Source: Eledone cirrhosa (Eukaryota). Taken from it: 64,000 nucleotides of DNA. Position 1 is the first letter of the stretch, and every line of letters starts with the position of its first letter. Below, piece after piece: positions 35,515 to 61,668 of this stretch. The notes below the pieces were generated by a model. That model made no database searches, was not told where the DNA came from, and saw only the letters and a program-made list of their open reading frames with translations. The stretch is taken from contig OZ024740.1 in the NCBI GenBank assembly GCA_964016885.1, positions 187,426,001-187,490,000 of the forward strand. The letters run 5' to 3'. The position numbers and the translations under genes were made by a program.

Positions 35515-35715
35515 GGAGGTGAGTTTTATTGTAGTACAATAAAGCAATGCAGATATCGGATAAGAAGTACTCTACAGTTTGTAGGACTGGAGTATACATA
35601 ATATATATGATCAAAAGGTTAAAAACACTTGTGGATAGTGCATTTTTAAATCAACATATGTTGATTTAAAACTGCACTATCCACAAGTGTTTTTAACCTT
35701 CATATCATATCCTCC

Positions 35716-35786
35716 TATTTTATCTGATGAAAACACAAATGTTATTGCATGATGATATTTGTTTTTGAAATGCGCATAATAAAATA
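35716..35786 (+). ncRNA. Type I hammerhead ribozyme motif (Penelope/retrozyme-like)
   Basis: Helix I tattttat/ataaaata (8 bp), CTGATGA at 35724-35730, helix II of about 15 bp with GCAT loop, GAAA at 35767-35770, palindromic helix III TGCGCA, UH = TA. Confidence 0.8.
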
Positions 35787-35845
35787 CATGGAACTCATTT
35801 AACCATCTTTTGATCTTATATATATATATATATATATATATCACA

Positions 35846-35967
35846 TTTAATATAGAAATGGCTTCTACAGAACCAGAACTGTTTCATTCAAAAGAAATCA
35901 TTAGCAAAGCTACTTTTTGATATCTTTTTAATGTAACAATTCTAGTAGAAACCATTTCTATATTAAA
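35846..35967. mobile_element. MITE-like element with about 27-bp TIRs
   Basis: tttaatatagaaatggcttctacagaa versus ttctagtagaaaccatttctatattaaa; a related left end occurs at 29627-29663. Confidence 0.65.
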
Positions 35968-36067
35968 CTTGATGTTTACACTCTACTAATGTATTGATTA
36001 TCTTACTAACTGTGGTTACCCCTTATTGAACACAGAACTCACACACACACACACACAGATTTATATA

Positions 36068-36412
36068 TCATCATCATCATCATTTTATTTTACGTCCGCT
36101 TTTTCCCTACTTGCAAGGGTGGGACGGGAACTGATTCTGGCTTGATTTCTACAGCTGGATGCCCTTCCTAACACCAACCTCATTTACAGTGAGTGCTGGG
36201 TGCTTTTTTGCCGTGGCACCTCCACGTCCACTTTGCAGTGGAATGATATGGACCCCAGTCCTTATCATCTCATTTCTACAGCTGAGTAAACTGGAGCAAT
36301 GTGAAATAAAGTGTCTTGCTCAAGGAAACAACACATCACCCGGTCTGAGAATTGAACTCACAACCTTTCGATTGCAAGGCCAATGCTCTAACCACTAAGC
36401 CATGTGCCTCCA
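36068..36412 (-). mobile_element. Full-length SINE family D (tRNA head + CORE-like + RTE-derived body and tail)
   Basis: ggaggcacatggcttagtggttagagc...gagttcaattc...ccttgagcaagacactt...ggttggtgttaggaagggcatccagctgtagaaa...ggacgtaaa...(GAT)n. Confidence 0.85.
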
Positions 36413-36482
36413 TTATGTTAGGCACAAGGCCAGCAATTATCCAGTACATTACTGGTACTTTATTTTATCGACCCCGTAAGGA

Positions 36483-36550
<68 letters not shown>

Positions 36551-36671
36551 AAGGTTGCAATAAATGCGTCCATAGGTGGTATGCCGTTTGAGTACTCGAT
36601 GCTCACGCGGAGCAGAGTATATTATAGATGCATATTATAGATATTAGTGATGCATTGAAACACAATTTATT

Positions 36672-36765
36672 AACATATTACATATGTTTCTCCGATGATC
36701 AGCTCAAGGCAGGATCTATTATAAACCGAACCTGACTCTCAATTCGCAAGGTCCTCAGATATGTT
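36672..36765 (-). ncRNA. Type I hammerhead ribozyme motif
   Basis: Minus strand: aacatat CTGAGGA [about 60-nt helix II region, cc/gg base] GAAA CATATG TA atatgtt, then aataaa; helix I is 7 bp perfect, cleavage triplet GUA. Confidence 0.7.
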
Positions 36766-36984
36766 TATTGTTTTCAAGGCATTTCTTCATGAAGCACACT
36801 GAGAACACCCAGCACACACTGTAAATCTGGTTGGCATTAGGAAGGGCATCCAGCTGTAGAAACCTAGACAGAAACAGTTCTATATAAGCAAGATACGGTC
36901 ACCTGACCCAATCTGCTTCTAATGGGACAACCTCTCTAACCCATACTAACATAGAAAATGGACCTTAAACGATGATGATGATAT

Positions 36985-37562
36985 ATGATTTGGTCCTTAT
37001 AGCCGAATCCATAAAAGAACTAGAAAATATGTTCTGACTATGGAAACGGAATTCGGAATGAAAGTTTCTGAGAGTAAACTTTGCCAAAACTAAAGTGCTA
37101 GTGATAGAACCCTGATTTCATCAGGGAATTTGCCTGGTTAAATGTGTAGAAAAGAAGTAGGCATAAACTCCTTACTACGTGCACAATGTAAATGTTGGTT
37201 ACACAAGAGATGTAGTGGGATAATGGGTAGACTTACAGAGATGGAAGACTTTGTATGTAGACGATGCACAGGGTTAATGAAGGAGAAGAGCATCAGTGAT
37301 ATAAACGTTTTTAATTCAGAGGAGCGGTCCATAGAAGTGGTTGATAGATTCTGCTATCTAGGTGACTTAATTATTAGCAGAGAAGGGTGCTTTGAGAGCA
37401 AAAAATCTAGAATAAAGATACGATGGAATAAAGATACGATACAAACTTTAGTGAGTTACTCCCACTGATGAATACAAAAGGTTTCTCCCTACACAAAAAT
37501 GGACGACTATATGATGTTTGCATGCTATGTGCAATACTTCATGTTAGTGAAACATGGGCTGT
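36985..37562 (+). mobile_element. Decayed RTE LINE fragment (RT end, PHD-like finger, thumb)
   Basis: DLVLIAESIKELE...RVNFAKTKVLV...CRKEVGINS...CKCWLHKRCSGI...FVCRRC...IEVVDRFCYLGD...SETWA; same family as 55955-57706. Confidence 0.9.
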
Positions 37563-39202
37563 ATATTTTGGTGGGAGAAGTTAATCAATTGAATTACCCC
37601 CAGTATATGATTGATTAGCACTATATGTTATTGACTTTAAAGGGCAACCTCAACAAGAATTGAAATCGTTACATAAAGAGACACAACTAAATCCTTTAAA
37701 GTAGTTTGTCTGATCTGCTAAACAATTTCGCCAATCCACAGAATAATAACAATCATTATAATTACAGTTATTACAAATTTTCTTATTAATATCATTGTTT
37801 ATATTATCTTCTTATCATTAAAAATATGTTTCTTTTTGCGTCTTCATTTCTATTTGCATTGAAAGGTAATGAAAAATTAATTAATAATTTTATTTGTTGT
37901 GTATATATGTGTATATATGTGTATATATGCTGGTGTTGTTGTTTTTTTATATGTCAGAAAATACTTTATTTCATTAGTGAAGTTAATAGTGGTGTGGTTT
38001 CAAAACTGATTTATTTAAAGTAAGGCCAAGCTGAAATGCCATAAAGACATTGCAGAATGTCAAATATTTTAGTCTTTAAATAGCCAATTTGGCACTTTTA
38101 AGTCATTAGATATCATTAGAATTTATTGCCTGTTGCCCTTTCGTAACTGGGAACTTATATTAACAAAATAAACCTTGATAAACTATTAAACAGATGATGT
38201 GATAATGTAGAAAAGACAAATGTGAGAAAACTAATTGATTTTTAAAAAACAATTAAATAAATTACAAAGAAAAATAAGACAAAAAAGAATGTTTCCACTG
38301 TGCATATATTATAACAACGAATAATTGTTCTCTAAGACAATTACATTCTGGTTTTGAAACTGTTCATCAGTTTCCAATCATAGTATGTGAATAAAGCAAT
38401 GAAGTAGATGATGTTGGAAAATGAGATTTTGCTAATGCTTAGACAAGATATCTGCATAATAAACCCCCTGCATAAATCAGTAAGCAACAGCTGTTAGAAT
38501 TTTCACACTGTTTTACTTGCAAATTTAGAAATTATTTGCCTTAAAATTAGCAACCTTAAATGTTACTACTGCAGCAGTAACTGGTCCTATAATTATCATA
38601 TCTGTTGCTGGTATATTTATATCTCAGTTCATTTCAAAACTGCCATTTTGTTTATTTCTTCATTCATTCAATCATCATCAGAGCTATATCTATTATCGTC
38701 CCCATTGTCATTTCTTTTTTACTATCAGCATCATGATTAGTATTATCAATAGTATCAATAGTATCATGATAACCATAGTCACCATTATCATCATCAGTAA
38801 CATATTTATTGTTATTTTCATGAAAAACATCACCTTAATCATCATTATCATAACAATTGTCAACATGACCATATTCATCACAATAACTGTCACCATCAGA
38901 ATACTCATTACTATATGTGATACTATGACTATAGATTCACTTTATAGCAATTAAAATATACATAGACTGTAAATATTGACATACACAATAAAAAGATTAG
39001 TTCACAAAATTATACACATCTATTGAAATATGTATATAACTATATATCTATATGCATAAACATTGACAGACATATATATCATCTCCTTTTTTATATCCAT
39101 TTTTTCCAGGTTGGCATGGATTGTATAGGGCATTTTGATGTAGTGGTTTAAGGCCAGATTCTGTTTCAGAGACTAACCTCTTATAAATATAAATATTATT
39201 CA

Positions 39203-39470
39203 GTCGATTGATTGACAAGATCTGACCTGATATGCTTACCGAGTTGAGTGGAACTCATGAAATTGGACCAAGGAAACAATGTTTCCATTAGTTTTTTCAA
39301 TTATTGATATTATCTGCAGGTCACATCCCTGGCAGAAGGAGCAATATGAAATAACGTGTCTTGCTCAAGGACATATATAATGAATGCATCACCCAGTCCA
39401 GGAATCAAACTTAACTTGCAATCTCATGATTGCAAATCTAATTCTTTGACCACTAATCCACACACTTTCA
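39203..39470 (-). mobile_element. SINE family C
   Basis: Head, CORE-like domain and tail ending gatcttgtcaatcaatc on the minus strand. Confidence 0.8.
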
Positions 39471-42400
39471 CAAAAATATAAATATATAAGCCACTTCCAA
39501 TTCCAAAATTGCATTCCAACGTTTGAGGGAAATTATACCCTTGATAAAACCACTCTAGTTTATTTCAATGTCTCGCATTTACACACAAAGAACAAAATCA
39601 CAAACAATTTGTATGCAGAAGAAAGAGGGACCATTTACAAAGTGCATCTCTAAAGGACCACGGAATACTCTGTTTATCCTGGATGAAACCATGAGGTTGT
39701 GCGTTTGATTCCTGGATTGGGCAATGCATTATGTTTTTGAGCAATACAATTTATTTAATGCTGCTCCTTTCGCTAGGAATTGTGACCAGTAGATAATACC
39801 AGCAATTGAAAACCCCAATGAATATGCTAACTTTTATTATGCTGAATTATACAGCTAAATTCTATTTTAGTTTTATCAGTGTTATATCCCTTACACTGAT
39901 GTTGGTATATTACATTAGCTCAAATCAAATTTGTAATCATTAAGGATGTCTGTATTTCTCGATTGTTCTCAGAGTGATCATAATTAAAGCTTAAACCTCT
40001 CTAACAGTTAGTTGAGATGACAGTAAACAGCTTTCATCTCTAATGGTAACAAGCAGCTGAATTATTAAATAAAATGAAAAAGCAAAGATAATAATATTTT
40101 AATGATGTAATACAAGATAAATATGTTCTCTCGTTTAACCATTGAATAATAGAAACAAGTTTATTTAGATTAAATCAAATGTCTGTTGAAAACAGAGTAA
40201 GTCTAGAGATGACAATACACAAGAGAGCAAACTTTGTGTCTTTCCTTGTTGGTTATATATCACACACTCAGTTACCATACCCAATAACTCATTGGTGGTT
40301 GCTTAATGAACCAACAGGAAAAAAAATGTTTTCCCAAAAAAGAGGATATTTAGTTATCTTAAATTACATCTGTCTTTTCTAAGCAATTATTCCAACATCT
40401 GTTAGATTCCAACTATTTTAAGATCCCAGACAATACTCATCTGATTCAAAAATATCTGCTGGCATTATAAACAAAGGCAAAAAGCAACAACAACAAAAAT
40501 AAAACAAGCCAAACCGTTATCTCTTTTTTTTTCTCAGTTTAATCTTGCTTTATTCAAAACTGTCACCATCTTGGAGGGAACTAATGACTAAATTTAGATA
40601 ATCTTGTCTATTTCCTGTTTCATGTATGAATGTTTCTTTTTTTGTCTTTTCTTGTTTTAGCTCTTAGAACAGAGTTCCTTTCTCCACAAAAATCAAATAA
40701 TTTACAATAAGGTTGTATTTTTGCTGACTTATTGTTCTAAAAATTAAAAAGATGAAAATGAGAAGAAAAGCAGGGAGTTTAGGAAAGGAAATTTTTGTAA
40801 CATGTCACATAGAATATATATAAATGGATAAATTAGTGGCAACTTTTATTATATTTTTAGCAACAATCTCATTTAAACTCATTCAGTTTTTTGTTATAAA
40901 GAGGTCATTTTTAAATGTCAAATCTATTATAAGTATATTAAAAAAATATAGCTGACATTATTCTTTTAAGAAACAATGAAATCATCTACAGTTAATATAA
41001 TAGAGTTGCAGAATAAATGAAATATCTAAGGAATTCCAAATTACTTTTCACCAAACAATAGTAAAAAGCTACTCTCATGTAAATGTATTCTTCTTTGTAT
41101 TCTGCTATGATTAGGTTATTTTTAAATGTCAAATTTGTTATTATAAGTAACAACAAAGTACTTTAGAATATTATTTATCTAACTAAAAAAACACCTTTCA
41201 AAACTATGAATGTCATTGGGGGCCAGAGGTTTATGTTGATTTTACACAAGAAATTAAATCAGAAGTAAAATTTTGCATGGGTAGATAATAGGCTCATACA
41301 ACTGCAACCTGTTATATTTGAATCTAAGCTGTATATATCTCTATATATACAGGAGATCTTATAGTTGTATAAGATCTCCTGTATATATTTGAATCTAAGC
41401 TGCAACTTTTTCTGTGAAAATACAATAGGAAAAATCAGATTGCAACTTATCTAGTGGACCTACAAAATCTCATTTCAAAGTATATGGTATATAGTAAATT
41501 TTGTATATAAAATAGAGGTGAATTATATATGAGTATATACAGCATACTCTGGCTAGATAAACTGAAGCGATGTTGGAGCTACATATTTTGTACGGAATTG
41601 TAATGAAATGCAAGCAGCAGAGAATCATTCTTAACCTTTGTGCTGGAACTCCAATTATCTATTCAGCTATTTTGCCTCTACTTATTATAGGATAATAAAT
41701 AACAGATATAAAAGTAACCCCTTTGTTAATTAAGATTGTATACAATAGTAGAGTAGAGTATCAATCGTCTAGTTTACAGAAATCACAGGGCTGACATTAT
41801 TCCTTTAAGAAACAATAAAATTAAATTTAGTTTAACATAACGTAACAGAGTAGCAGTCTAAATCATGTATCTGAAGAATTCTGATTTACTTGCAGCCAAA
41901 CAGAAGCAAAAAGGCAGTATCTGCTGGCTGTTTATCTAAATTGTCAAGAAAGTATACTATTAACTTAGTTTCTGTCATATAAAAGTTGTGTTTCTTTGAA
42001 TATGTAATAATAAAAGAAAACTTGCAAATTTATGATATAACGAATTATTTAGGTATTTTCAGCCTACACTAAGTTAATAATCAGATAAATTCTTGTGATT
42101 TATGGAATTATTAAATGTATAAGAGATAGAAAAGGATTTCTTTGAAAGTTATCCAAAGTTTCCATTACACTTTTGGAATAATCTTGGCCAGATCACATAT
42201 GGGGTCTATTCAACATAAATATATCAAATAATTGGCAAACTATGACATCTTCTATACCTATCAGTAAAGATTTTCATGATACTGTTTAAGCTTAGGATAA
42301 TCGGAATAAGAAAATCTTGCTGTATTATCTGTAAGTCATTAGTGATCATATAAGAATCACGATAAGATATTATCACATGTGTACTGGTTGTATAAAGTTA

Positions 42401-43264
42401 AATGTAATATATAGTTTGCAAGTCACAGAGTTCTTAAGAATTTCAAATTTTTCAAAGTTAAGCAAGCAACCCTATAAATAATATGACACACACTCTTTTT
42501 CCTCAGTAAACATTTTAACAAAATATTTGTTAGACACTCTTCTACATTCATTCATACATATGTAGGAATATCAACATTGATATACAATTATTTTTAGATT
42601 TATAATTATGGGGGTAATAAATAGAATGATTCAATGTCTGTGTGTACATTCATATTTATTTCTCTAAGAATTCAAACATACTTATTGAAAGTTAAATTTT
42701 TAGGTCTTTTCCTCCAAAGAGTAAGATATATTTTATTACAGCATTTGGGAACAATAACCACATTGGACATATGATCTATAAAAGGATCAAATAGATCAGA
42801 CAATTAAAGGTGAAAGCAATATGAAATATTTGTGCATTCATCTTTTCAAAGCTTATAATCTATCCACTGAGATGTTTTCACTTACAAGGCATTGTTTAGC
42901 TTAAGAACACACACGAAGATACTTGTCCAAGATATCAGAAAGCAAGATTGAACCCCCAAAAAAGAAGCCTACAAAGCACAATTCTTAACCAAACAGTCTA
43001 TGTTGTTAAAAAAATGCTTTTGCACTATGCACCATCAAATAAATTACTGATATCAAATATAACCATTCAACTTATATATTTTCCAACTCTACTAATATAG
43101 GGGCAAATCATACAGATCCCTTGATAGGCTTCATACTTATCCTGCAGTCCTTTTTGAGGTAATGATTTATGGCAAGAACAACTTCAGTCACCTAAAAGGG
43201 TCTTGACAGGGCTATGACAATAAGGGTGCTGTGTGAGCAATCTTTCCTAGAAAGCACATTGGTC

Positions 43265-43690
43265 ATCATCAACATTATCATTGTCTGGTTTAACATCTTC
43301 TTTACTTGTCATAAGCGTTGGATGTTTTTGTAGCCTCTTTCAAAGCATCTTTCCAGAATGTTCGTTCAAGAGATAGGTTTTGGTTCCAGGCTTTCAGATC
43401 ATCACTGATTACCTTTTCCCAGGTCTTACATAGGTGCTATATCTTTCCATTCTACCAGGACCCACCATCTTGATTCTTTGATATATCCATCCACCACTAC
43501 TGTTCATATATCCAAACCAATGCAGTCTGCATGATCTTAAGACATATTTGTGTGCTAGTATCTTTTATTTTTGGTAGAGGGATGCCATGTTAACTCTGTC
43601 TGAGATTTTGCACCTCATATTCAGTGAAGCATGACATTTTTGTTTCTCACCAGTTGCAATTTGTCCTCAATCTTAGAGGCCATATACTCA
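43265..43690 (-). mobile_element. Decayed RTE LINE 3' end
   Basis: Minus-strand fragments LRSCRLHWFGY and KTWEKVISDDLKAWNQ...WKDAL, followed by an RTE-like tail. Confidence 0.65.
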
Positions 43691-44141
43691 AGACCGTACA
43701 ATCACACAAATCAAATTTATTTTTCAAGAAACAAAAAAAAAGAAATAATAATAGTTATAAATGCCATTAATATTATTCATTATAAGCTCAAATATAAGGT
43801 AGATGCTCTACACTGCCTTATAATTATACGGCTGAGTAGAGCAGCTGGCTCACCATTTTTATTTTCGGTTTCAAATTACAATATATAATATCATTGAAAT
43901 AACAATCTTACCAGTTAGTTCATAGAATTATCTCTCATCAAAAAGATTGAAGCAAGGTAGGATACCTTGTTATGTTGAAGATTAGTAAAGTAACCTCTCC
44001 TGACAGCAGCACTGAGTGACTGACAAATTATCTTATAGAGATAAAACAAAAAAGTTATATGTGAATACAGAATGGTTAAATGACTTAGAAGTTTGCTTTG
44101 TAATTATATGGTTGCACAGCATGGCATTTTGGCCAACAATT

Positions 44142-44582
44142 GGAGGTGCATGGCCTAGCAGTAAGGGTGTTGGACTTATGATCATAATTGTTTCTACTTT
44201 AGGCACAAGGCCAGCAATTACCCAGTGCATTACTGGTACTTTATTTTATCGACCCTGTAAGGATGAAAGGCAAAGTCAACCTCGGCGGGATTTGAACTCA
44301 GATCATAAAGGGACGTAACTATACTGGAAAGCATGGCGTCCGACCCTCTACCGATACTGCCAATCCACGTGTTCGATTCCTTGACTGAATTGTGTGCTGT
44401 GTTCTTGAGCAAAACACTTCATATCACACTACCCAAGTATACTAAGCTGAAAATGAGTACCAGCAGTAGCTGGGGTGTTAAACCTACGATCCTGTCCAGT
44501 GGGGAGTCATATATTATCAGTCGCTTAACACCATGTAAACCAGGATAAGTACTGGCCTGATGAGCCTCCAGGCTCAAGACAG
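44142..44582 (+). mobile_element. SINE B interrupted by an antisense SINE A (44185-44368)
   Basis: SINE B head ggaggtgcatggcctagcagtaagg...atgatcataat breaks off and resumes at gtgttcgattcc after a complete minus-strand SINE A. Confidence 0.9.
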
Positions 44583-44886
44583 GTGAGCCAACACTAGAAT
44601 TGTGAGGAGAACTAGGTAGATGGAAAATATGTGGAAGCCCATTGGATGGATTATAATTGTAACTCAAAGGTCCAATCTTGTCAAACACTGATTTTAAAAG
44701 ACACATAAAAGACACATGCATCAATGGAATACTCAGTCAAATTCCATCTAATTCATTTTGTAATCTAATATTCATCATCAAAACCAATAGATACCTTTTT
44801 CATAACTGAAATAGCAGAAACATTAAGGTAGATAATATTTGAGAAAGGGAAAGGGTAGACACTCTGCAGTTTAAACAATAAATTTG

Positions 44887-45225
44887 TTCATCCAGCAAGC
44901 AAAGGATTCATGGCTCAAGCACTGTCAGTGGATCTGTTGCTCTACTCAGTCTGAAACTGGTGCTTATAATGTCTAAAACCATTTATATTAAAATCTTAGC
45001 ATTGAATTGGTTAAAAAAAGCAAAAAAAGAAATTCCTGTGGCAACATCATTGGTCACCCAGCAAGCAAATATATACATGGCTGAAGCACTGTCAGTTGAC
45101 TCGTTGCTTTATTTAATCTGAAACTGGTGCTTATAATGTATAATACCATTTATATTAAAATTTTAGCACTGAATTGGTTAAAAAAAATAGAAAAAATAAA
45201 AGTCTATTGCAACATTATTGTGTCA
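44887..45225. repeat. Tandem duplication, two units of about 167 bp
   Basis: ccagcaagcaaa...catggct.aagcactgtcagt...tctgaaactggtgcttataatgt...ccatttatattaaaat.ttagca.tgaattggttaaaaaaa occurs twice. Confidence 0.9.
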
Positions 45226-45643
45226 AAGCAGCTTTGTACCAAACCCTGTTGAAATAAATGTCAAATGTTTCTCATCTTTTTATTAAAAAAGATAGCTATG
45301 GTAGAACTATCAGGAATATCATCTAGATCAAATGGAAAGATAAATGGAACATGTAGAATTCATCTGAATTATAGCAATCAATTTGTTTATACTTGACTCA
45401 TTGCCTTTTTTCAACCAACTAGATTAATGATTTAGTTCAATGGTTATATATATACTATCTCAGTTTATGATATTTGCAGTAGTGTCGCTACTATATTAGT
45501 GAAATATTTCACTTAACTGCTTCTTCCAGACAATATTGTTGGTTTTTTCACCCACATTTCATGTCATCATAGTATGAAATAAATAGCTATATATTTCATT
45601 ACACTCATTAGTTTAAAACATTAAATGTATATATATTTATATA

Positions 45644-45738
<95 letters not shown>

Positions 45739-46310
45739 TTGTCTAACCCATGCTAGTGTGGAAGATAGACGTTAAACGATGATGATGATGATGATGATAT
45801 ATACACGTATATATTTATGTGTATATACACATATATATATTTATGTGTATGTGTATATATATATATATATATATGATATGTAACATTTATATTGATCTGT
45901 TTTGTGCTACTAATGTCATTCTTAAACATATCAGGAAATCCATATGTAGATATTTGGTTCCATATGGTTAGCTGTTGTGCAATTTACCTTCTATAGAGAC
46001 TAATGGCCCCTGAATTGCTTCAGCTGAAGCTTATTCAAATGCCATATCTTTGCAAAGCTGCCTCTCAAAGAGAAGTTTATGAAGAAGCAAATTATTGGAA
46101 AATACATGGATTATGGAAGTGTGATGAAGTATTGATTCCGTATATGAGAGGCCATAAACTAACAATCCTCCAGGTTGATTTAGCTTAAAACCAAATATTC
46201 CAGGCCTAGAAACAGACAAAATAGATTATTATTATTTGTAGTTGTAGTAGCCACAGTAATATTAGCAGCAGCAGCTGTTTTCATCGATGTCATCATCATA
46301 GTAGTAGTAA

Positions 46311-46525
46311 GGGAAGATTGGCAGTATCGGTAGAGTATTGAACAACATGCTCTGCAACATATTGTTACAAACCTTAATGTTCGGAGTTCAAATCATGCTG
46401 AGGTTATCTTTGCCTTTCATCCTTACATGGTCAATAAAATAAAGCACCCATAATGCACTGGAGTCGATTTAATCAACTTCCTCTCCCGAAAAATTGTTGG
46501 CCTTGTGCCTAAAGTAGAAACCATT
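46311..46525 (+). mobile_element. SINE A, long-tail subfamily
   Basis: Carries gagtcgatttaatcaacttcctctccc, which the young copies lack; ends agaaacc(att)n. Confidence 0.85.
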
Positions 46526-46543
46526 ATTATTATTATTATTATT

Positions 46544-47413
46544 GGGAAGAGCGACGATGTACTTGGGGAAACTCTAGGCATCGACAAAAATCAACTAGCC
46601 AATCTCTTTGGATGAACTTTTGGGCCGGGGCCTATGGACAACTTCCAGAAATCCCTGGCCTGGCAGTGCTACCGAGGAGCTTTGCCAGTTCGGGATAAAC
46701 TCTACAGACATGGAGGTGCCGTCAGCCGGGCATATTCGAGATGCACGCAAGGCGACGTAACCATCCTGCATGCACTCGTCCAGTGTCCGAGCATTGCTGA
46801 CTTGTGGGTTTATGTCGAACACCTGTTGTCGCGTGTAGAATGGATCCGACTATCAGCTGAGTCCATCGTGAGGATTGCCCCACCCTCTTCCTTTAGCTGG
46901 GAAGGGAAGGCAATTTTTATCTGTCTGGTGGCCATGGCGAAAGAGATAGTATGGTGGACGTGTCTAAAAGGGCTGAAGACGAGCACTTACCTCTTCGGTG
47001 ATGCCCTGATTAACTTTTTCCAATTTCATTTGAAAAGAAAAATCAGGGTAGAGAGGGAAGTGCTCTCTTCCCAGCTTTTTGTTGAAAGATGGGTGAGAGA
47101 GGCAAAAATGGCCCGAGTGAATGGACCTACTCTGAGTATATGCCTGTAAATTGAAGGTGGAAAACTGAGAGAGGGCACTTGCTCTGGTGGTCGGGGTCAC
47201 CGTGGCTTTTTTTAATGGGCTTTCTCCACGATGGCATTCGGAGTCTCCCCCCTATTGGGGAATTTTTCATTGTTCATTTATTACATCCTCTGTTTTTTGT
47301 TTTTTTTTCACGCTGAAATGCCTATTTGTACCATCCTGTATTGTCCTGTACTGTCCTTAATGTCTACTTTGTGTAAACCCTTGTGGTTAATAAAGAAACC
47401 ATTATTATTATTA
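46544..47413 (+). mobile_element. L1/Tx1-clade LINE, 5'-truncated 3' end (ORF2 C-terminal zf-RVT-like region + 3' UTR)
   Basis: ORF 46634-47149 KSLAWQCYRGALPVRDKL...RCTQGDVTILHALVQCPSIADLW matches the W...H..LP....C..C....ET..H....C......W pattern (first Cys lost); GC/CpG-rich relative to flanks; ends aataaagaaacc(att)n; (ATT)n on both sides. Confidence 0.9.
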
Positions 47414-47584
47414 TAGCAAGCCACATTTGAGACTAGAATAGTTCTTATATTTTATTCAGAAGAAATGATATTAATCGTGAAATATCAGCCCTGTTTCTTA
47501 TGATTTAATTATTCTCCATCCAAACCTACATTGCTGTAGCTTTCAACTCCAAATTTCCTTATTATTATTATTATTATTATTATT

Positions 47585-47785
47585 GGCGGTGGATTGACAA
47601 TATCGGTAGAGGGACGGATGCCATGCTTTGACACATAGAGTTATGGCCCCTGCCATTCTGAATTCAAATCCCGCCGATGTTAACTTTACCTTTCATCCTT
47701 ATGGCATCGATAAAATAAAGAACCAGTAATGCACTGGGTAATTGCTAGCCTTGTGCCAAAAGTAGAAACAATTATTATTATTATT
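47585..47785 (+). mobile_element. SINE A, short-tail subfamily within (ATT)n
   Basis: Full head to tail; (att)n on both sides. Confidence 0.9.
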
Positions 47786-49747: not shown

Positions 49748-49930
49748 GCAGGTTGGTGATGCTATTTCACCCATAGTTGGGAGGGATGGCTGTTAACTCT
49801 GAGGAGTCCATCTGCTCTTTTTACAGATTTTAGTTTTTGTGCTGCTGGGGTTCCACTTACCCTCCTCATTAGACCATGGACTCGTGTGGCAGTCAGTTTA
49901 TTCACTGACCATGAAGTAGGTTGTACTAAC
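49748..49930. repeat. Unclassified dispersed repeat, copy 2
   Basis: Homologous to 32885-33060. Confidence 0.75.
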
Positions 49931-51336: not shown

Positions 51337-51577
51337 GTTAAAACTTTTGACATCAAATCACACGAAACCATTCTTGGTTCTGCAATACAATACCATTTGT
51401 TGTAAGAGTTTATATTTATCTAAATGCCCTCCATCGTCATTTTATGTAAGAACACCTGCCTAATAATGAGAATGTTAGTTATATTACTAAATCAACGAAA
51501 TTCATTATCATTTTCAAAGTTATTTTAAAATCATAGTCAATATTTTTCATTTGAAATATGGTAATGAATGGGTTAAA
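51337..51577 (-). mobile_element. TTAA-bounded non-autonomous DNA transposon, second copy
   Basis: ttaaaacttttg...gaatgggttaa termini; internal similarity to the reverse complement of 27151-27400. Confidence 0.45.
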
Positions 51578-54093
51578 TTCACCAATTGTCTCAGATCTTC
51601 CTTGAAATTGGGTTTACATTCTCCTGATTCAGGCCAACTGTGAAGGTTGGTGTGTAACAGTACATCTCATTGTGAACACATATCTGATTCAGGCATCTAC
51701 TACTATGTTGATAGTTAACTCGATTATATAGAACTTTCAATGACAACATAAAAGCTTATTGAAAAAAAAAGTTTGCTGAAAAACGGATATTGAAAAGCAA
51801 TAATGAATATAATGATAATTATATATTATTAGTCTTATTTTCTTGAATGTTACATCTAAGATGAAGTAGACAAATTCTTTAAGATATTGTCTGAAGTCCA
51901 GTATTAGTATTCTGCTGTCCCACTGAAGAGCAGGAAAGAGTGAAACATCAGATTTAATCAAATCAGGACCTTGAAATTTCTAGACAACACTCACTAAATA
52001 AAAGTAAATAAATATTGATTTATGGAAGTGAAATTTCTCACAAATGACATCAATAAATACTTGAATGTGTACGTGTATGTATCTGCATAAGTGTGTGCAT
52101 CATCTATCAATTTTGCTTCTAGCTAAGACACATTGATTTCATTAGTTCTATCCCCAAGGACATCTTTTCAGCAGGAAAATGAATTTGATTCTGTCTTCTC
52201 ATTATTACTTGTGTTCTACTGTGATTTAATATCAGTATAAATAGTTATGGTTGTCTTCCTTGATTGTTTGTGCTTGAAAATGACTGAACAAAACTACTCT
52301 TAATTGGGAAACAGTATATAAGTTATAATTTACCTTTATATGCTTAGATAATCTATCTACAGCTGTTATAGAATATTTGTAAAGTTTCTTGCTGGAATAT
52401 AATCTTGTATGTTAAAAATATTTTTTCTTTCTTTTTTTCACTCTTGATAATTTTTTGTTCGTAAGGAAAATATATATTAAATTATATTACATTAGAGCTG
52501 TAATTTTTTTTTGTATTATATTTTAGCATAAATATTTCACAGAACAGTTCATCTTATTAAAAATGTCCATTCTTTTGTTGTCTAAAAACAGTGGCTTTAA
52601 ATCTCCCCTATAGTAATTGTTATGAAGAAAACATTTTGCTGTGTGCTTTACTTTATTGTTGTGATCTCTGTTAGAAAAATAATCCATCTCATTAGTATAA
52701 ACCTTAACAGATTTCTTCAGATTTAATGAAGAAAATACATGATAGGCAGAGAATTACATCTCATATCGTATACTCCTCAAATGTCCTTGACACATTTTTC
52801 ATCCTCCTTTTACAATAAAATATTTCCTTGTGAAATTTAGTTATTTGTTAAATGCATACTGTTGTTTGGCATGTTTTTGCTCTGTAAAATGAAGCAAGAT
52901 TAGGCAATGACAGATTAGATACTTCATGGTTAAGGGCATAATGGGATTTGATTCTATTGTTATTTCAAATCCATCTTATTAACACATAACTAAACAAAAA
53001 ATATATAGAATTTCCTTAAGAAATAATGAATAATGTTTATATTTTTTCCTTTCTCTAATTGGAATTTTGCTTGCACTGTAACATTAATACATTAAAAAGA
53101 AATTCAAAGCAACATTAAATGATAGCATTGTGGCATCAACAGTACTCCACACATGACACTCATGTTTCTTTGAAACAAATTTGGTAATTATTATTTTCAC
53201 CCCAGTTATTATTGGTATGAAGGAAAATAAAGGAGAAAAGATGACAGAAATGCACTAATTTGTTTAAAATGATTAATTTCACTAAAATTAATGCTTTAAA
53301 GTAATGCTTGCTGTCAAAAATATGTTTTGAAGGTCAACGTAATTAATGTTAATTTCCCATTCAGTACTTATTTGCTTAAAGTAACAAATAGTAGTGGTGA
53401 TGGTGGTGGTTGAAATGGACATAGGTATGCATTGAGTTTATTGAAATTGTTTCATTTTATGAGGACCATGAATTATGGGAACCAACTCACATGAGATGCA
53501 ATAGAAGAAGACCTGTTTGAACCTTCATCGATCAACTCTCAGATGATACAAATTTGATAATTCTTAAGATTCAACAATGGTGCAATACATATATATTGTA
53601 ATCCTAGATAATCTTCAACAGTCGTGACTGATGTGCTTTTAACCTTAGGTCAGCTTACTCAGAGTTGAACTAGAAAAAAAATATGATCAAATAATTTTCT
53701 TTCAACAATTTTCGAAACAAAGTTAGTTAAAACTTGAAACTGTGACTTATGATTTTAAACTATGGCTTTGAAAAAATCACTAATTTAACAACATAGGGTA
53801 TTTAGAGATAAATAGAGTTCGACTTCATTCATTTACTGAGTATGGTGGGACTTGTTACAGACACACACGTATATATATATATATAGAGAGAGAGAGAAGT
53901 GGTTACACAACAGTTAGTTCACCATACCAAGAACAATTGTTTCACCTTAGCAGATTCTCAGCTCGTAATGGACATGGTTAAACCCATCTTGGTATGGTGA
54001 ACTAACTGTTGTGTAACCCCATCTACCTAACTTGTCCCATGGACTGAGTGCTCTACCACTACGGATATTACCTTACCACTATATATATATATA

Positions 54094-54655
54094 CGTTTGG
54101 AGTTGGAAGGCCAAAACAATGCAGGTATGGATATAGAATATAAATATAAATGCAAAAGATATTGTCTTTACCTTAAATTTATTTGAATATCCTTAATTTT
54201 CGAGATAATATCTCTTCTTCAGAGGGAAGTAAAGGGTTAATCCAGTGTTCTAATTAGCTTACCAAGTCATGCTGACAGGAAATGGTATAGAGATTCCATT
54301 CTATTTCTAATGGCAAAGAGTGAAGTTTAGGTGGATAAAGAGTTGTCTCCCTTTAAAAGGGGTTTTGAACATGTATGTTTAAGTGTGTGGGAGAATACGT
54401 GAAGGTGTAAATATGCGTGTGTGTATGTGTGTGTGTGAGAGAGAATAAGTGGAGGTGTAAGTTTGTGTGTGTGTGTGTGTGTGCGTATGTGTGTGTGTGT
54501 GAGAGAGGGGGTATGTGGAGGTGTAAGTGTGGGGCTAGGTGCTCTATCATGTTAAAAATTGGGTGTTGAGTTCTAGTCTGTTATTGATTGGTGGTTGTGT
54601 TTTATCTATAATGTAAGGAGGAGTATGTCATCTTCATATCGGGTGAAGAAGGAAT
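54094..54655 (-). mobile_element. Putative Penelope-like element 3' end with degenerate hammerhead
   Basis: Minus strand YIIDKTQPPINNRLELNTQFLT* resembles the I....P..N terminus of PLE GIY-YIG ORFs; then a (CA)n UTR, CTGAAGA-a-gagat-att-atctc-GAAA-at-TA (54188-54228), aataaa and (TA)n. Confidence 0.5.
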
Positions 54656-54661
54656 GGTCTA

Positions 54662-54789
54662 TATATTATAAAGAGTCAGGACCCAATGGCTAAGCTCTTG
54701 CTGTTCCACAGCTAGTTGCAGATTCACTCTGGAACTAGCTGTTGAAATGGCAAGAGCTTAGCCATCAGGTACTGACTCTTTATAATATA
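54662..54789. mobile_element. Hairpin/MITE-like element, about 128 bp, almost fully self-complementary
   Basis: tatattataaagagtcag...atggctaagctcttgc...acagctagtt / aactagctgt...gcaagagcttagccat...ctgactctttataatata. Confidence 0.7.
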
Positions 54790-54864
54790 ACCATACTCTA
54801 CTAACCCAAGTATCGAGTACTCTGTTGAGTAATGGTCTACCAGTATCAAACATAAACCATCCTG

Positions 54865-54901
<37 letters not shown>

Positions 54902-55954
54902 CATACATATATATTCTCTAAAAGGAAATTCATCAGCCTTAACTCTAACCTTCATATCTTCCTTCTGCAAATAAAACAAACAATAACAAGATTTTTATTT
55001 TCTTTCATTTTTATAGACTGTGTTGTTTTTTTTCTTTCTACAAGAGAGAGTTGTTGAGAATGAAGATAGAAAATATCAATAATGTTTAATAATGGAATGC
55101 AAGGCAAAATTGATATTATTGGGAATTGAATTCAGTAAAACTGAGATAGTGAACAAGGTATTATTATGAAGGAGTTAATGTCTTGATATACAGAATGCAC
55201 TAAATCAACTGTTGCTAGCGAGCTAAACAAATACTAAAACAGAAAAAGAAAACTGTAATAGAAATGAAATTAAACAACCTTTTTTCATTTTTGGATTGCA
55301 ATGTTTAGCTGTATGGGTGTGTGTATATAAAATACATATATTTGAATACTAATTTACCTGTTCCACCTGAAAGGCTGAGCCCATGCTGGGACACTGTATT
55401 AAACTTTGTATTGATCTAAACATTGCTTTGAGATTTGAAAATAAGAATGCCACAAATGGAACTCAGACCTACCTCTCACTTGCTAGGCAACTGCATTTAT
55501 ATGCTTGCCTTCCAAGAGCAGCTTTCAACAGTTCTGCATAAGCTTTCCTCTTCTGCAACCTCCATTCACTTGGACTTGTTGGCATTCTTCACCTATCAAT
55601 CATCATACCAGTGCAATCCTTTCTCTTACACATCACTGCTTTGGCTAACTTACAGGGTCACCAGATTCTGACATGTCCCAGACTCACTTGTCGGAATCTT
55701 TTTGATCCTGATGATGTAGGAGAGAGGTTGTGGTGGAAAGGATCTGTTCAACCCAAACAACCATGGAGAGTTTACGTAAAGTGATGATGATGGTTATTAT
55801 TATTATTATTGTTGTTGTTGTTATTATTATTATTTTTATCATTATCATAAATATATACAAATATATATGTGTGTGTGTATATATATGTATGTTTATGACA
55901 AAAGTCGGTGGATTATCTGACCAACCAACTTTCCATAATTATATGATATATATA

Positions 55955-57705
55955 TCATCATCATCATCATCATCATCGTTTAACGTCCATCTTCCACGCT
56001 TGCATGGGTTTGGACGGGAGTTTTCCCACTTGAGGCAAGATTTGTTGTCCTGCTCGTATAGGACTGTCTGGCGGGTTTTCTACGGCTGGATGACCTTCCT
56101 AACACCAACCACGTTTACAGTGTGGACTGGGAGGTTTTTACTGTGTTACCTACACGGCCACATTACAGCGTGGACTGTGTGTTTTTTTTTTGTTGTGACA
56201 CCTACTCAACCTCATTTGGTTCGGACTGGATGTTGTGGTACCAACATAACTTCACATTTAAGGGGGTGGTGTGGATAGGGTGGGGGTAGTGGCACGGGGG
56301 TGTATTTTGTTAGAGGTGCTTACTTACTGTAGTAGGTTTCGCTTTGTACTTAGGTAAGGCGGGTCTTCTGTATGACTGTGTAGCGCCAAAGATCTCGGTC
56401 CAGTGACATTGTCTTGGAGAGGTGTAAGTGTGTGAGGTCGGAATTTATCAAGTCGTCCCAGGTTTTTCTGGGTCTGCCTACTCCGTGGCTACCATCTATT
56501 TTTATCGCCCTGCACTTTTTTATACAGCTGTCATCTTTCATGCGCATCATGTGACCATACCAACGTAGTCTTCTTTCGAGTAAACAACATCTGATCCCTC
56601 TTATTCATAATTTCTCCCTTAGTTCGTTTATGCCTTGCCGTTCATGTATATTACTATTACACATCCAGCGGAGCATGCAAGCTTCGTTTCTCTCCAGTCT
56701 GTGTATATCCTCTGCACACAATGCCCAGGTCTCACTGCCATGTAACATTGCTGTTCGTATGCAGGCATCATACAGCCTGCCTTTCATTTTTAGAGAGAAC
56801 CCTTTAGCGGCCAATAGTGGTATAAGCTCTCTGAACTTTTTCTATCCCATTGTGACTCTAGCTAAGGTACTTTCAGAGCACCAGGTAACGGAAGGTGTCC
56901 ACTATTTCTATAGAACCATCTGTGCAATGGAATGAGCTAGTATTCTGTGGGCACTTGCTGCTACTTATTGCACCAGCGCACCAACCACATATAAAATCTA
57001 TATTCTTAGTTAGCTTACCTGTGATCCCACTACATCTTTTATGCACCCATACTTTGCATTTGGGACATAAAATGGAGTTTCTGCCTACTCCCTTCCTACA
57101 CACTGAGCATGGCCATTTCCCAGATGGGACCGGTGCCCTATTTTCCTTCCTACAAACTAGAACTTTAGTCTTAGACAAGTTAACTTTAAGGCCTTTTGAT
57201 TCTAGGCCATGCTTCCATGTTTGGAATTTCTTCTCTAGTTCAGCCATTGATTCAGCTATGAGCGTTAGATCATCTGCATATAGGAGTTCCCATGGGCAGC
57301 TGGTCTTGAACTCCTCTGTTATAGCCTGAAGGGCAATAATAAATATATCACAAGCCATTCATCAACACCTAGATTTTTAAGCGCCCACCAGATAATGGAA
57401 CGGGGGACTCTGTCAAAGGCTTTCTCCAGGTCAACAAAAGCTAAGTATAGGGGGTTTACTTTTAGCTAGGTACTTCTCCTGTAGTTGTTGTACAATTAAA
57501 AGAGCGTCTGTGGTACTTTTACCTGACACAAACCTGAACTGCATTTCATCTAGATCAATTCGTTCTCTGATTAGTTGCGCTGTTACTTTTTCTGTGACCT
57601 TCATGACCTGGTCGATTAATTTAATGCCTCTATAGTTACCCCTATCAAGAGCATCTCCTTTACCCTTGTAGCAGTTAATGGCCCCATTCTGTATGACTTT
57701 GTTTA

Positions 57706-57706
<1 letters not shown>
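55955..57706 (-). mobile_element. RTE-clade LINE, 5'-truncated, internally deleted and frameshifted (RT, PHD-like finger, thumb, long 3' UTR, (GAT)n tail)
   Basis: NYRGIKLIDQVMKV, QFRFVSGKSTTDA, FVDLEKAFDRVPR, LLYADDL, MLHGSETW, RLRWYGHM, GRPRKTW; 3' UTR ends ggacgttaaac(gat)n. Confidence 0.95.
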
Positions 57707-57750
<44 letters not shown>

Positions 57751-57815
57751 ACCGAATTTCTGACTGATAAGGTTGAATCTACATGGGTACGTCTTTATTT
57801 AGAAAACAAACTTTG

Positions 57816-57880
57816 TATTTTAACTGATTAAAGCGCACCAAGATTGGCTTAGTTGCTCTTGAAATATATATAATAAAATA
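57816..57880 (+). ncRNA. Degenerate type I hammerhead motif
   Basis: tattttaa CTGATTA aagcgca...tgctctt GAAA TATATA TA ataaaata; G8 is mutated to T and the helix I closing pair is mismatched. Confidence 0.55.
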
Positions 57881-57914
57881 AATATGGTTTTATAAATATA
57901 GTTTCCATTTGTAG

Positions 57915-58118
57915 GCGCCACGAAAAAGCACCCAGCACTCACTGTAAATGAGGTTGGTGTTAGGAAGGGCATTCAGCTGTAGAAATCCAGCCAAATCAGT
58001 TCCTGTATGAGCAAGGCATGGTCAGCCGACCAGAAACTGCCCACAACAGGACAACCCGTCTAACCCATGCTAGCGTGGAAGAACGGACATAAAACGGTGA
58101 TGATGATGATGATGATGA
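57915..58118 (+). mobile_element. RTE 3'-UTR/SINE D fragment
   Basis: gccacgaaaaagcacccagcactcactgtaaatgaggttggtgttaggaagggcattcagctgtagaaa...acccatgctagcgtggaa...(gat)n. Confidence 0.85.
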
Positions 58119-59136
58119 TTTATTTAATATCATGGTATATATATATATATATATCATATAATTATGGAAAGTTGGTTGGTCAGATAATCCACCGACTTTT
58201 GTCATAAACAGAGGTAAAGCACTCTATGATTTGTATTCCTTAAAGTGTTATTGATAGGCTATCACCCAGAATGTCAATATTATAAAGAACAGAGATGGCT
58301 TTAAATGTAGATCCTCTGTTTATTACATAATCTTATACGTATTTCGAAACGTCAAAGTGATTGCATCTGACTTTTGTTGTAAACAGCTTATTATGCAATC
58401 AACTTGAAGTCTTTGAAATACATACAACAGGATTATATAATAAAGAGAGGAGGTACATTTTAAACCGTCTCTCTTCTTTATAATATTTATATATATATAT
58501 ATATATATATGCGTGTGCATATGTCTGTCTGTCTGTACATGCACAAATGCAGCCTTTAATCTTACTCAGTTTCTGTTAATATGCACTCAACAACCATTAT
58601 ATAAAATTTCATTTTCATTTTATATTTCTCTCTAATAATTTGATCAACTTAGAAAAATTGACAAATATATCAATCTTCAAACAAATTGTTTCATCTATCT
58701 AGTCTCTACTCTATTAATTCTATGAATTGGGTGAAAATAATACGCATCAAAATAATATAAAGTAAAATAATAAAGGGTTTAAGATCATTAAGCGAAATAA
58801 TTTTAATATTGATTTCTAATTTTAGCACAAAACCAGAATTTGTTGTCTTTGTGGGGGGCAAAGGATATTTGATTAAATCAATTCAGTACATGACTTTTAT
58901 TTTTATTTTATCAATTCCAGAATGATCAAAGCAGTAATTTTAGTCAGATTTGAACACAAAATGTAAAGTGCCATGATTAAAAACTGCAAGGCATTATGTA
59001 TTTAGATATTAGGGCAATCTTTAGAGTGTTGGACAAATGCTTTGTAGTATTGGTTCTGGCTATTTATGTTCTGAGTCAACTAGCCTTTCATACTTTCTAG
59101 GCTGACGAAACAGTATACCAGTAAAGTACTACTATA

Positions 59137-59430
59137 GAAAGTCCGTCTTGAGCCTGGAGGTTCAACAGGCCAGTGCTGGTTATCCTGGTTTCCATGGCGT
59201 TAAGTAACTCAAGTTCAAAACTTCCCCCTGGGCAGGATGCCAGTGGACCACAGGTTTAAATCTCCAGCTATTGCTGGTATATATTTTCAGCTGAGTATAC
59301 TGGAACAATGTGACATGAAGTATTTTGACTCCTGTATGCTATAAGGAACAACACACAACCCAATCCCGGAATCAAACCTATGACATTCTGATTGTAACTC
59401 CAACACCCTTATCACTACGTTATGTGCCTC
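59137..59430 (-). mobile_element. SINE B inserted into an old SINE A (59010-59135 and 59435-59502)
   Basis: Complete SINE B on the minus strand; SINE A central domain to its left and SINE A tail (ggccttgtgcctaaattagaaaccatt) to its right. Confidence 0.8.
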
Positions 59431-59694
59431 TAATACAGGCAATATAATCGACATTCCCTTCCTGATGGATTGCTGGCCTTGTGCCTAAATTAGAAACCAT
59501 TATGTATGTAGACATTGTTGTACCAATCTAATAGAGAAAAGAACAACAGTTTCATTGATGCAACTCAAAGCACTTATTTATTATTTGCTAAAAGCCAAAA
59601 TAAGTTCTGTGTTAGCAAGACTTCACCTGGCTTAATTCACGAGAGGAATCGTCTAATCCATGGTAGCATGGAAAATGGATGTTAAACAATGAGG

Positions 59695-59741
<47 letters not shown>

Positions 59742-59748
<7 letters not shown>

Positions 59749-60296
59749 GAATATAAAATGAAAGTGCTTTTTTTAAAAAAAAGGAATTTATTAGGTATTG
59801 ACATATGTTTCTGTAACAGACGGAACACCTATGTATCGCTGCTTGCGTAATCATATAATGTTAGCAAGTATTCGATAGCAAATGTATAATAAGTTGTCAC
59901 TTCTTCAGAGATTTTGGATAAATTGGAAAAAATCAGAAAAATTGAAGTATTTATATTAGTTGTAAGAAAGGAAGAAGAGAGGGGATATTATATGACAAAT
60001 GGTAATTCAATTTACTGCTAAACAAGTATATAAAGGGTTTCTAATGAGAATACAATGAGTAAATGGTTTATTTTATCTAAATAAGAATTTTTGGGAGTGC
60101 CTATTTTAATCTATACTTGACCAATTGAACAATGGACAGGGCTGGTCATTTGGTGTAGTAGTATTAATTATAAAGTGTCAATTAAGGAAGGGGGAGATTT
60201 TGACTGCTACTGAATAACATCAATGCTAGTAGCCAGCTGGTATATGCATTAGGGCATTGAATTAAGAAATGTCATTTTATCTATAGCAGTTTATAT

Positions 60297-60339
<43 letters not shown>

Positions 60340-60412
60340 TAAATATATATATATATTTGTAAATGTACATTTGTAAATATATATATATACATATATATAT
60401 ATTACTGAATTG

Positions 60413-60463
<51 letters not shown>

Positions 60464-60895
60464 AAATGTATATTTGTAAATATATATATATACATATATA
60501 TATTTATTAAAATAACAGATTAAAGTTTAAGCAAAGAATTGCTGCTTTCACCCTTAACGGGATCTTCTGAAACTAATACTTCAATTTTTCTGATTTTTTC
60601 CAATTTATCCAAAATCTCTGAAGAAGTGACAACTGATTATACATTTGCTATCGAATACTTGCTAACATTATATGATTACGCAAGCAGTGATACATAGGTA
60701 TTCCGTCTGTTACAGAAACATATGTCAATACCTAATAAATTCCTTTTTTTTAAAAAAAGCACTTTCATTTTATATTCATCTTTTCTACATTTTCTCCGGA
60801 ATATAATTTATACTCGTTGAGCAAACCTACACGTACGCTGTTAATCTCTAACGTAACGATATATTATCACTACATTATTGATAACCTGAAATTTA
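59742..60895. mobile_element. Putative Penelope-like remnant with 210-bp inverted pseudo-LTR pair
   Basis: 59742-59951 is the reverse complement of 60575-60784 (3 mismatches seen); each copy has CTGAAGA...GAAACATATGTC and aataaa; (TA)n at both outer ends. Confidence 0.65.
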
Positions 60896-60918
60896 TATAT
60901 ATATATATATATACATAG

Positions 60919-60950
<32 letters not shown>

Positions 60951-61099
60951 GACACGACAAAAAGAACTCAGCATATACTGTAAATGTGGTTGCCATTAGA
61001 AAGGGCATCCAGCTGTAGAGACCAAGCCCAAATCAGATTCAGGTGAGTGAAACACCGTCCTCTGACCTGATTCTCTCCCAGTGAATATTAATAATGCCT

Positions 61100-61131
<32 letters not shown>

Positions 61132-61668
61132 AGGCATTATTAATATTCACTGAAGTATTTGAACTAGTGTCCTCGTTTTTGTTCTTATAACCACAATGTT
61201 TCAGTGAATGTATCCTCTGGGCTTCTTAGGCAGTTTCTTTTTTCCTCTGGAGTTAATTTAATCGACAGGGGCAGATTGGATGAAAAGTTTATTTGAAATT
61301 ATGAGAACATTACCAGATATGATAGACAGAAGAAAGCTTGCAGATCAATGAACAAAACATTGAGGCTATAACAAATTACATGAGAACACTTGTCTGAATA
61401 TATCAGTATAGAAAATATATTCATTTACTGGCGGCGGAAACTTTCCACTTGTACCAAGCACGGTTTCTCATTTTGTGTCCTATCACAGCACTTGACCTAT
61501 TGACTAGCTTGAAAACTGAAGTTGTAACAGAACAGAGTGAAGCATCAGCTTCCAGTAAATGAGAGAGTAAACTCAACAACATACATCTGAAGTCTAAAAC
61601 ATACATAAACACACACATATACATATATATACCCCTGCTTGCAGGGAAAGTAGACATTTAAATGACAA

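Follow-up and report, generated by a model that had tools for sequence, protein, structure and literature searches.

Type I hammerhead elements combine a CUGANGA box, a GAAA box and a UH site with three helices. The Hydra clade of Penelope-like elements (PLEs), as described by Craig et al. (2021; PMC8557442), is marked by RWK and DKT motifs, a CxCX5C linker, an endonuclease without CCHH and canonical hammerheads; insertion into (TA)n is reported there for almost all Hydra families, among them Hydra-1_Obim of Octopus bimaculoides, and the same paper leaves open whether PLEs require their hammerheads to retrotranspose. Hammerheads of PLE pseudo-long terminal repeats (pseudo-LTRs) have also been described (Cervera and de la Pena, 2014; PMC4209133), one of which gave no activity as a monomer and low activity as a dimer. 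Animal retrozymes are presented as tandem units of 150–450 bp (Cervera and de la Pena, 2020; PMC7229834), and a preprint (10.64898/2026.07.22.740005) derives them from PLE pseudo-LTRs. In our literature search for hammerheads with octopus, PMC8557442 was the sole title to deal with PLE hammerheads, and a giant squid genome paper also matched; an account of Octopus vulgaris repeats (PMC13282606) describes Penelope-like families, and neither 'hammerhead' nor 'ribozyme' occurs in its main text.

Here we analyze a window of 64,000 nucleotides from Eledone cirrhosa (contig OZ024740.1, positions 187,426,001 to 187,490,000, forward strand), an AT-rich stretch dense in microsatellites in which a preliminary description had listed eight hammerhead-bearing loci as a candidate (TA)n-targeting Penelope or retrozyme system. 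We assign these loci to families F1 (at 35716), F3 (36672), F4 (about 53935), F7 (54188), F5 (57816), F6 (about 58335), F2 (the 59790/60715 pair) and F8 (about 61195), and add a ninth family, F9. The loci are, with high probability, 5′-truncated 3′ ends of several PLE families, mostly bearing Hydra motifs, that lie in (TA)n and were likely placed there by endonuclease-primed insertion. The candidate system is real but for the most part known, having already been published as the Hydra clade (PMC8557442), so that our finding mainly adds families and scale.

Because an Rfam scan of the window (E ≤ 10) showed no hammerhead family among the 150 matches listed of 177, we used a descriptor of our own, which demands both core boxes, a helix I of at least 4 bp, a helix II of at least 2 bp and a palindromic helix III. 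Applied to 60 stretches of 10 kb taken at round coordinates (600 kb of a genome of 3.0 Gb in 1,796 contigs), it found 34 strict motifs in 19 of the 60 stretches, against none in each of six dinucleotide shuffles. Without the helix III requirement there were 50 matches in the sample and 3 in ten shuffles, and 28 of the 50 were palindromic. Such an excess makes it extremely improbable that motifs of this kind arose by chance in DNA rich in AT and microsatellites. The chance reading draws on the imperfection of most window copies, on the presence in the window of 14 GAAA-palindrome-UH halves, 7 of them outside the earlier list, and on the absence of a hammerhead among the listed Rfam matches. Many different helix sequences nevertheless keep their pairing, and relatives restore the canonical core; chance is refuted for F1 and F3–F6 and is possible for F8.

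Plain extrapolation from the sample gives about 170,000 intact motifs genome-wide (bootstrap 100,000–255,000). Since the sample holds 9 exact F9 patterns against 3.6 expected and is by this calibration about 2.5-fold rich, a fairer figure would be roughly 70,000–170,000 intact PLE hammerheads per 3.0-Gb genome, an estimate extrapolated from 600 kb with one calibration. The position-sampled loci L142–L201 include many more hammerhead families (palindromes CTAG, CCGCCGG, CTAATTAG, CG and GTAC), with helix II regions of up to 63 nt and no linked frames.

Five families retain a canonical core, and their window copies are the following.

35512..35816, + strand: F1 insertion of a Hydra-type PLE, with inverted tail and arm at 35512–35657 and then the direct 3′ end at 35658–35816
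35716..35786, + strand: intact type I hammerhead of F1, with an 8-bp helix I, core at 35724–35730, GAAA at 35767 and palindrome TGCGCA
36543..36789, − strand: F3 3′ end that carries a tail and runs into (TA)n at 36489–36542, with no linked coding partner
36672..36765, − strand: intact type I hammerhead of F3, with a 7-bp helix I, core at 36758–36752, a 61-nt helix II region and palindrome CATATG
53895..54079, − strand: short F4 insertion, inverted arm plus tail, between (TA)n at 53870–53885 and 54080–54093
57748..57910, + strand: F5 3′ end with hammerhead at 57816–57880; Hydra-type endonuclease upstream in a longer copy (L100)
57911..58118, + strand: putative SINE-like (short interspersed nuclear element-like) repeat inside the F5 3′ end, boundaries approximate
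58119..58135, + strand: last bases of F5, continuing into (TA)n at 58136–58153
58154..58487, − strand: tailed F6 3′ end plus inverted arm; this copy has only the hammerhead 3′ half (GAAA at 58345)

The preliminary description had seen all or part of a type I layout at each of its eight loci. The named GAAA halves with a 6-nt palindrome and UH are indeed present, at 35767 (+), 36690 (−), 53943 (−), 57861 (+), 58345 (−), 59811 (−) and 60715 (+), but the motif is intact at only two loci and is mutated, truncated or variant at the rest. The strict descriptor finds only the cores at 35724 (+) and 36758 (−) in the window, and these two copies show CUGANGA, GAAA, UH and three helices together; at the family level the same set is found in F1, F3, F4, F5 and F6. 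The F1 insertion is flanked by (TA)n on both sides (35482–35511 and 35817–35840), its hammerhead has a predicted cut after position 35778, and its core is conserved in 27 of 28 relatives. For F3, the true core of the 36672 motif lies 61 nt further off and is kept in 16 of 19 relatives. The F4 hammerhead (about 53922–53971, palindrome CAATTG) has a G8-to-A change of the core in the window copy and is canonical in 12 of 14 relatives. Two changes, one in helix I and one at core G8, separate the F5 window copy (palindrome TATATA) from relatives that are canonical in 14 of 14 cases, and the F6 copy (palindrome TACGTA) is 5′-truncated inside helix II and lacks the CUGANGA box, with the core retained in 7 of 14 relatives. 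At 35716 and 57816 the AATAAA, a putative polyadenylation signal, overlaps the 3′ strand of helix I.

Of the eight loci cited before, seven are members of large families in the genome; the locus at 61195 is weak. Similarity searches returned 260 candidates for F1, 1,723 for F2, 3,173 for F3, 1,199 for F4, 1,477 for F5, 693 for F6 and 2,149 for F7. The best 40 candidates of each family were scored, a choice that favors complete 3′ ends, and for F1 there were 44 near-full matches at 95–100% among the best 40 of 260. Counts of relatives exclude the window's own locus as well as one locus each in F1, F7 and F8 in which the anchor motif was not found. Beyond short motif likeness the loci are mutually unrelated, in keeping with the independent families proposed earlier.

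The origin of these ends becomes apparent in longer copies. Reverse transcriptase (RT) and/or GIY-YIG frames lie upstream, in the same orientation, in F1, F2, F5, F6, F7 and F9, that is, in six of the nine families and in five of those cited before. A single frame runs from RT to GIY-YIG in F1, F2 (L236), F7 and F9, and the endonuclease part alone stands upstream in F5 and in F6 (L107, L114 and L115). The Penelope-like origin suspected earlier is thereby supported for the loci at 35716, 54188, 57816, 58335 and 59790/60715; no frame could be linked to 36672 and 53935, and no RT or GIY-YIG frame was found for F8. Frames near F3 and F4 were considered as partners and rejected, since they belong to other families. 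The elements also share PLE anatomy: an inverted 5′-truncated partner accompanies 20 of 28 copies of F1 and 13 of 30 of F2, and 3′ ends are of two kinds, either short, with a stop at an internal TA-like site, or extended by a tail of 50–110 nt. The window itself carries only non-coding ends, save for the last codons of F7.

Because Pfam gave no significant match for the Hydra-type proteins, their placement relies on motifs compared by eye with PMC8557442, with no tree. RWK and DKT both occur in F2, and DKT in F9, whose RWK region lies outside the frame read; the sequences recovered for F1, F5 and F6 do not include this part of the RT. The CxCX5C linker together with an endonuclease without CCHH is found in F1, F2, F5 and F9, and F6 is decayed but alike; F7 differs. 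The F9 endonuclease has a CxxC/CxH pair in addition. A canonical hammerhead near the 3′ end is present in relatives of F1, F5 and F6, but not in F2 (0 of 30) or in F9, where the core is U4A in 17 of 19 copies. A Neptune-type reading of the linker was dropped against the definition of the Hydra clade. By these motifs, the families mostly appear to fit the Hydra clade, and among 61 sequences (the 60 stretches and the window) Hydra-type endonuclease matches occur in 16 and F7-type matches in 3.

Several results weigh against the reading of the loci as PLE ends, mostly of Hydra type, in (TA)n. No coding frame is linked to any of 24 ends of F3 or 23 ends of F4. A tblastn search of the window with PLE proteins gave no match, and the lack of a significant Pfam match has been noted above. 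When the window copies are folded in silico as monomers, most predictions lack the hammerhead junction. In F2, 10 of 12 distinct copies are frameshifted or stopped before the C-terminus of the endonuclease, and in F8 no relative (0 of 7) has the link to (TA)n.

Association with (TA)n is otherwise pervasive, as the preliminary description had anticipated. A (TA)5 tract lies within 200 nt downstream of 28 of the 34 strict motifs, compared with 19.1% of background positions; the binomial p of 3e-15 is overstated because inverted pairs share loci. For the 28 palindromic matches the tract is downstream in 23 and upstream in 9 over the same distance, and CA/TG tracts, downstream in 3 of 28 against a background of 9.9%, are not enriched. 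By family, the fraction of relatives with downstream (TA)5 within 200 nt is 26/28 in F1, 15/19 in F2, 18/19 in F3, 12/14 in F4, 12/14 in F5, 8/14 in F6, 11/13 in F7 and 17/19 in F9. The F5 locus at 57816, once regarded as an exception with its (TA)n upstream, in fact conforms: beyond the inserted repeat its 3′ end continues from 58119 and reaches (TA)n at 58136. We infer the insert to be SINE-like from its likeness to other window repeats and its GAT-repeat end.

It could be argued that the tracts were made or lengthened by insertion, through slippage from the TA-rich end of the element, and were never targets. The site at which short 3′ ends stop is indeed TA-like and internal to the element, and the genome is rich in (TA)5, with 22 tracts per 10 kb in the sample. 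Tailed ends, however, also adjoin (TA)n, and of 16 5′-truncation junctions without an inverted partner, where the element contributes no TA, 9 fall in (TA)n (F1 5/6, F2 4/10) against a background of 7.8%. These truncation junctions point to pre-existing tracts, in line with the landing sites proposed before, and we regard an origin of the tracts by insertion as improbable. Two tracts are shared by ends of different families, that at 54080–54093 by F4 and F7 and that at 58136–58153 by F5 and F6, which suggests repeated insertion into the same tract. The F6 tail end is present twice in opposite orientation, at 55884–55956 (+) and 58154–58210 (−), around 2.2 kb with a fragment of long interspersed nuclear element (LINE) RT; this is possibly a small inversion or duplication.

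With targeting of (TA)n as the preferred reading, the PLE literature suggests how such ends might arise. Element RNA would be transcribed from the upstream pseudo-LTR, and the RT–GIY-YIG protein would nick a (TA)n tract and prime copying from the RNA 3′ end. Copying would mostly halt early or fold back, so that only the hammerhead-bearing end remains. The palindromic helix III may allow two hammerheads to cut a tandem precursor RNA as a dimer.

The preliminary description had also proposed that several of these elements are non-autonomous or retrozyme-like. For the set as a whole this is not supported, given the upstream frames in six of nine families and the nature of the copies, which are dispersed 5′-truncated ends and not short tandem arrays. 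It is a more serious suggestion for F3, F4 and F8, which could be non-autonomous retrozyme-like elements that borrow PLE enzymes: F3 and F4 lack a linked frame, one F8 locus has a tandem structure, and the preprint cited above provides a route from PLE pseudo-LTRs to animal retrozymes. F3 and F4, however, share the anatomy of inverted partner and tail with the coding families, and the check upstream of them spanned only 1.5–2.5 kb in short copies ranked by similarity. Moreover, tandem units of the 150–450 bp by which PMC7229834 defines retrozymes were absent from alignments and self-comparisons of F1–F7, in which no dedicated tandem scan of loci was included. We therefore consider borrowed enzymes unlikely for these three families and favor truncated PLE ends.

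Two further cited families differ from the canonical set.

54094..54612, − strand: F7 3′ end of a non-Hydra PLE, beginning in the last codons of its own frame
61073..61227, − strand: old, decayed hammerhead-like F8 unit, with the unit at 61132–61227 and an inverted arm across (TA)n at 61100–61131

The F7 hammerhead (about 54188–54229) is minimal, its palindrome measuring 4 nt and its helix I 3 bp; CUGANGA is present in only 2 of 13 relatives, and most have CCGAAGA (U4C). Its proteins have a YVDD RT and an endonuclease with CxxC and two His residues (Pfam GIY-YIG, E 9e-7), and by these CCHH-like residues F7 is assigned to a clade other than Hydra. F8 has eight weak relatives at 73–79%, and its ribozyme is putative. 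One of its loci, L135 (C13:14212562–14215653), contains several tandem units of about 102 nt with decayed boxes, the only retrozyme-like array seen.

The ninth locus was absent from the earlier list, sits at an F2 insertion junction and drew attention through a contig depth about 20 times as high as for F2.

60504..60575, − strand: F9 end of a Hydra-type PLE, with type I layout at 60524–60574, a U4A core and a closed helix III of 4–5 bp

Its motif has a 5-bp helix I, a 3-bp helix II, GAAA, a UU site and A at core position 4, and the core reads CAGAAGA in 17 of 19 sample copies. A 31-nt pattern with core position 4 left free has at least 17,750 exact matches in the genome (control 0), and the first 100 matches listed all have A at that position. 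In a literature search for U4A, none of the 12 titles listed of 14 dealt with such a variant, though Lunse et al. may cover PLE variants; PMC3088659 describes a U4C variant that works slowly in vitro yet suffices in vivo, and its main text does not contain 'U4A'. The closed helix III of F9 might allow the motif to function as a monomer.

The greatest departure from the canonical hammerhead is found in F2.

59743..60291, − strand: inverted 5′-truncated F2 copy, motif at about 59792–59908, running into (TA)n at 59699–59742; inner boundary approximate
60575..60893, + strand: direct F2 3′ end with tail, running into (TA)n at 60894–60950

The pair has a perfect 8-bp helix I, with one mismatch in the 59790 copy, and no adjoining core. 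The direct copy carries CUGAAGA at 60618–60624, the 8-nt helix I partner at 60695–60702, GAAA at 60715, the palindrome CATATG and a UC site at 60725–60726. In this family the motif's 3′ half has at least 2,095 exact matches, and a longer core-less form has 1,068. None of 30 position-sampled copies has a core beside helix I; in 26 of the 30, CUGAAGA stands 97 nt before GAAA, and in those 26 the six bases after CUGAAGA can pair with the six before GAAA. A sister pattern with a canonical core beside helix I gave no match over helix II lengths of 4–34 nt, longer helices falling outside the pattern, and no insertion restoring the core was found in four contig sets (one study). A type III reading was rejected by eye, as helix III would be unpaired.

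F2 is a young family in which the motif appears to be either dead or rearranged. In longer copies, L236 holds a frame of 725 amino acids with RWK, DKT, YRDD, CNC-x5-C and GIY-YIG-like motifs, and L232 has two motif copies 3,119 bp apart with the frame between them; the 725-amino-acid protein has 540 homologues at E ≤ 1e-30, with a best identity of 42%. The endonuclease region includes a hypervariable patch of about 30 nt, with 16% minority letters in one 20-column block and about 1% on both sides (L034, L038, L039, L043, L046, L047, L050, L051, L203, L216, L235 and L236), and it is here that 10 of the 12 copies are frameshifted or stopped. The patch may reflect CpG decay combined with homopolymer errors, or else a genuine hot spot.

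Two interpretations of F2 deserve mention. If the motif were an active hammerhead of new connectivity, as one model would have it, the far CUGAAGA box would form a 6-bp helix II, the helix I partner would lie in the loop of that helix, and a 5-nt linker would join the partner to the 3′ strand of helix II; this model has only a slim chance of being correct. Folding predicts a plain hairpin, with a pair probability of 0.84–0.98 for the helix I hairpin and about 0.02 for the far-core helix, and the latter value weighs against an active rearranged form. Given this plain hairpin and the broken endonuclease ends of 10 of 12 copies, a dead motif is the likelier case, and F2 most probably lacks an active ribozyme.

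For F2, amplification despite a crippled ribozyme is likelier than an active new connectivity. More generally, we tentatively propose that the most successful families (core-less F2, U4A F9 and U4C F7) may have spread with crippled ribozymes, a suggestion that could well prove wrong; if it holds, cleavage would be dispensable for Hydra-type retrotransposition. Whatever its fate, the octopus genome offers a natural series from canonical hammerheads (F1 and F5) through core variants (F9 U4A and F7 U4C) to the core-less or rearranged F2, all in recently amplified families, and this series makes the need for a hammerhead in PLE retrotransposition directly testable.

Other features of the window lie apart from this system. 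Three tRNA-like Rfam matches, at 33110–33180 (+, 40 bits), 15077–15147 (−, 28.8 bits) and 36345–36402 (−, 28.1 bits), are probably heads of tRNA-derived SINEs. Decayed LINE fragments at 56400–57706 (−) and 46616–47149 (+) match RVT_1 with a PHD-like finger, zf-RVT falling below the cut-off. When five frames were submitted to Pfam, the only protein-family matches were to two LINE-like window frames, unrelated to the hammerhead loci.

Set beside the described systems, these families most resemble the Hydra clade as presented in PMC8557442: they share with it a single frame of RT and C-terminal GIY-YIG with RWK/DKT, CxCX5C and no CCHH, a hammerhead near the 3′ end, (TA)n insertion, inverted 5′-truncated partners and a one-sided tail. 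They differ in that many families occur here, helix II regions reach 61–63 nt, tails measure 50–110 nt against a published 30–40 bp, and F2 repeats lie 3.1 kb apart. Comparison by eye matched none of the nine motifs to the Hydra-1_oBim hammerhead row given there. F2, without a core beside helix I, and F9, with U4A, depart from the canonical hammerheads that PMC8557442 describes as universal in the clade, and these are the parts of our finding that look new.

The hammerheads themselves resemble those reported from PLE pseudo-LTRs (PMC4209133), which are likewise type I with a palindromic or very short helix III, leave a base unpaired where helix II begins, and occur mostly as single motifs from truncated PLEs, with opposite-strand pairs 100–700 bp apart; F7 fits the short-helix variants of that account. 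In contrast to it, most motifs here have an 8-nt palindrome (with the A15.1–U16.1 pair) and a helix I of 5–8 bp, F9 has a closed helix III, and the density is far above the published 2,000–9,000 per genome. With the animal non-LTR retrozymes of PMC7229834 they share a type I hammerhead set within short, non-coding repeated sequence and, at one F8 locus, a tandem arrangement, but the present copies are scattered ends of elements that encode protein and not tandem units of 150–450 bp. Finally, the F2 model recalls the SGC non-circularly permuted hammerheads (Eckert et al., 2023; PMC10085705), in which a short linker also joins a stem I strand to a stem II strand. The scheme set out there assumes that CUGAnGA together with its stem I and stem II strands forms one indivisible block, whereas F2, on this model, would split it.

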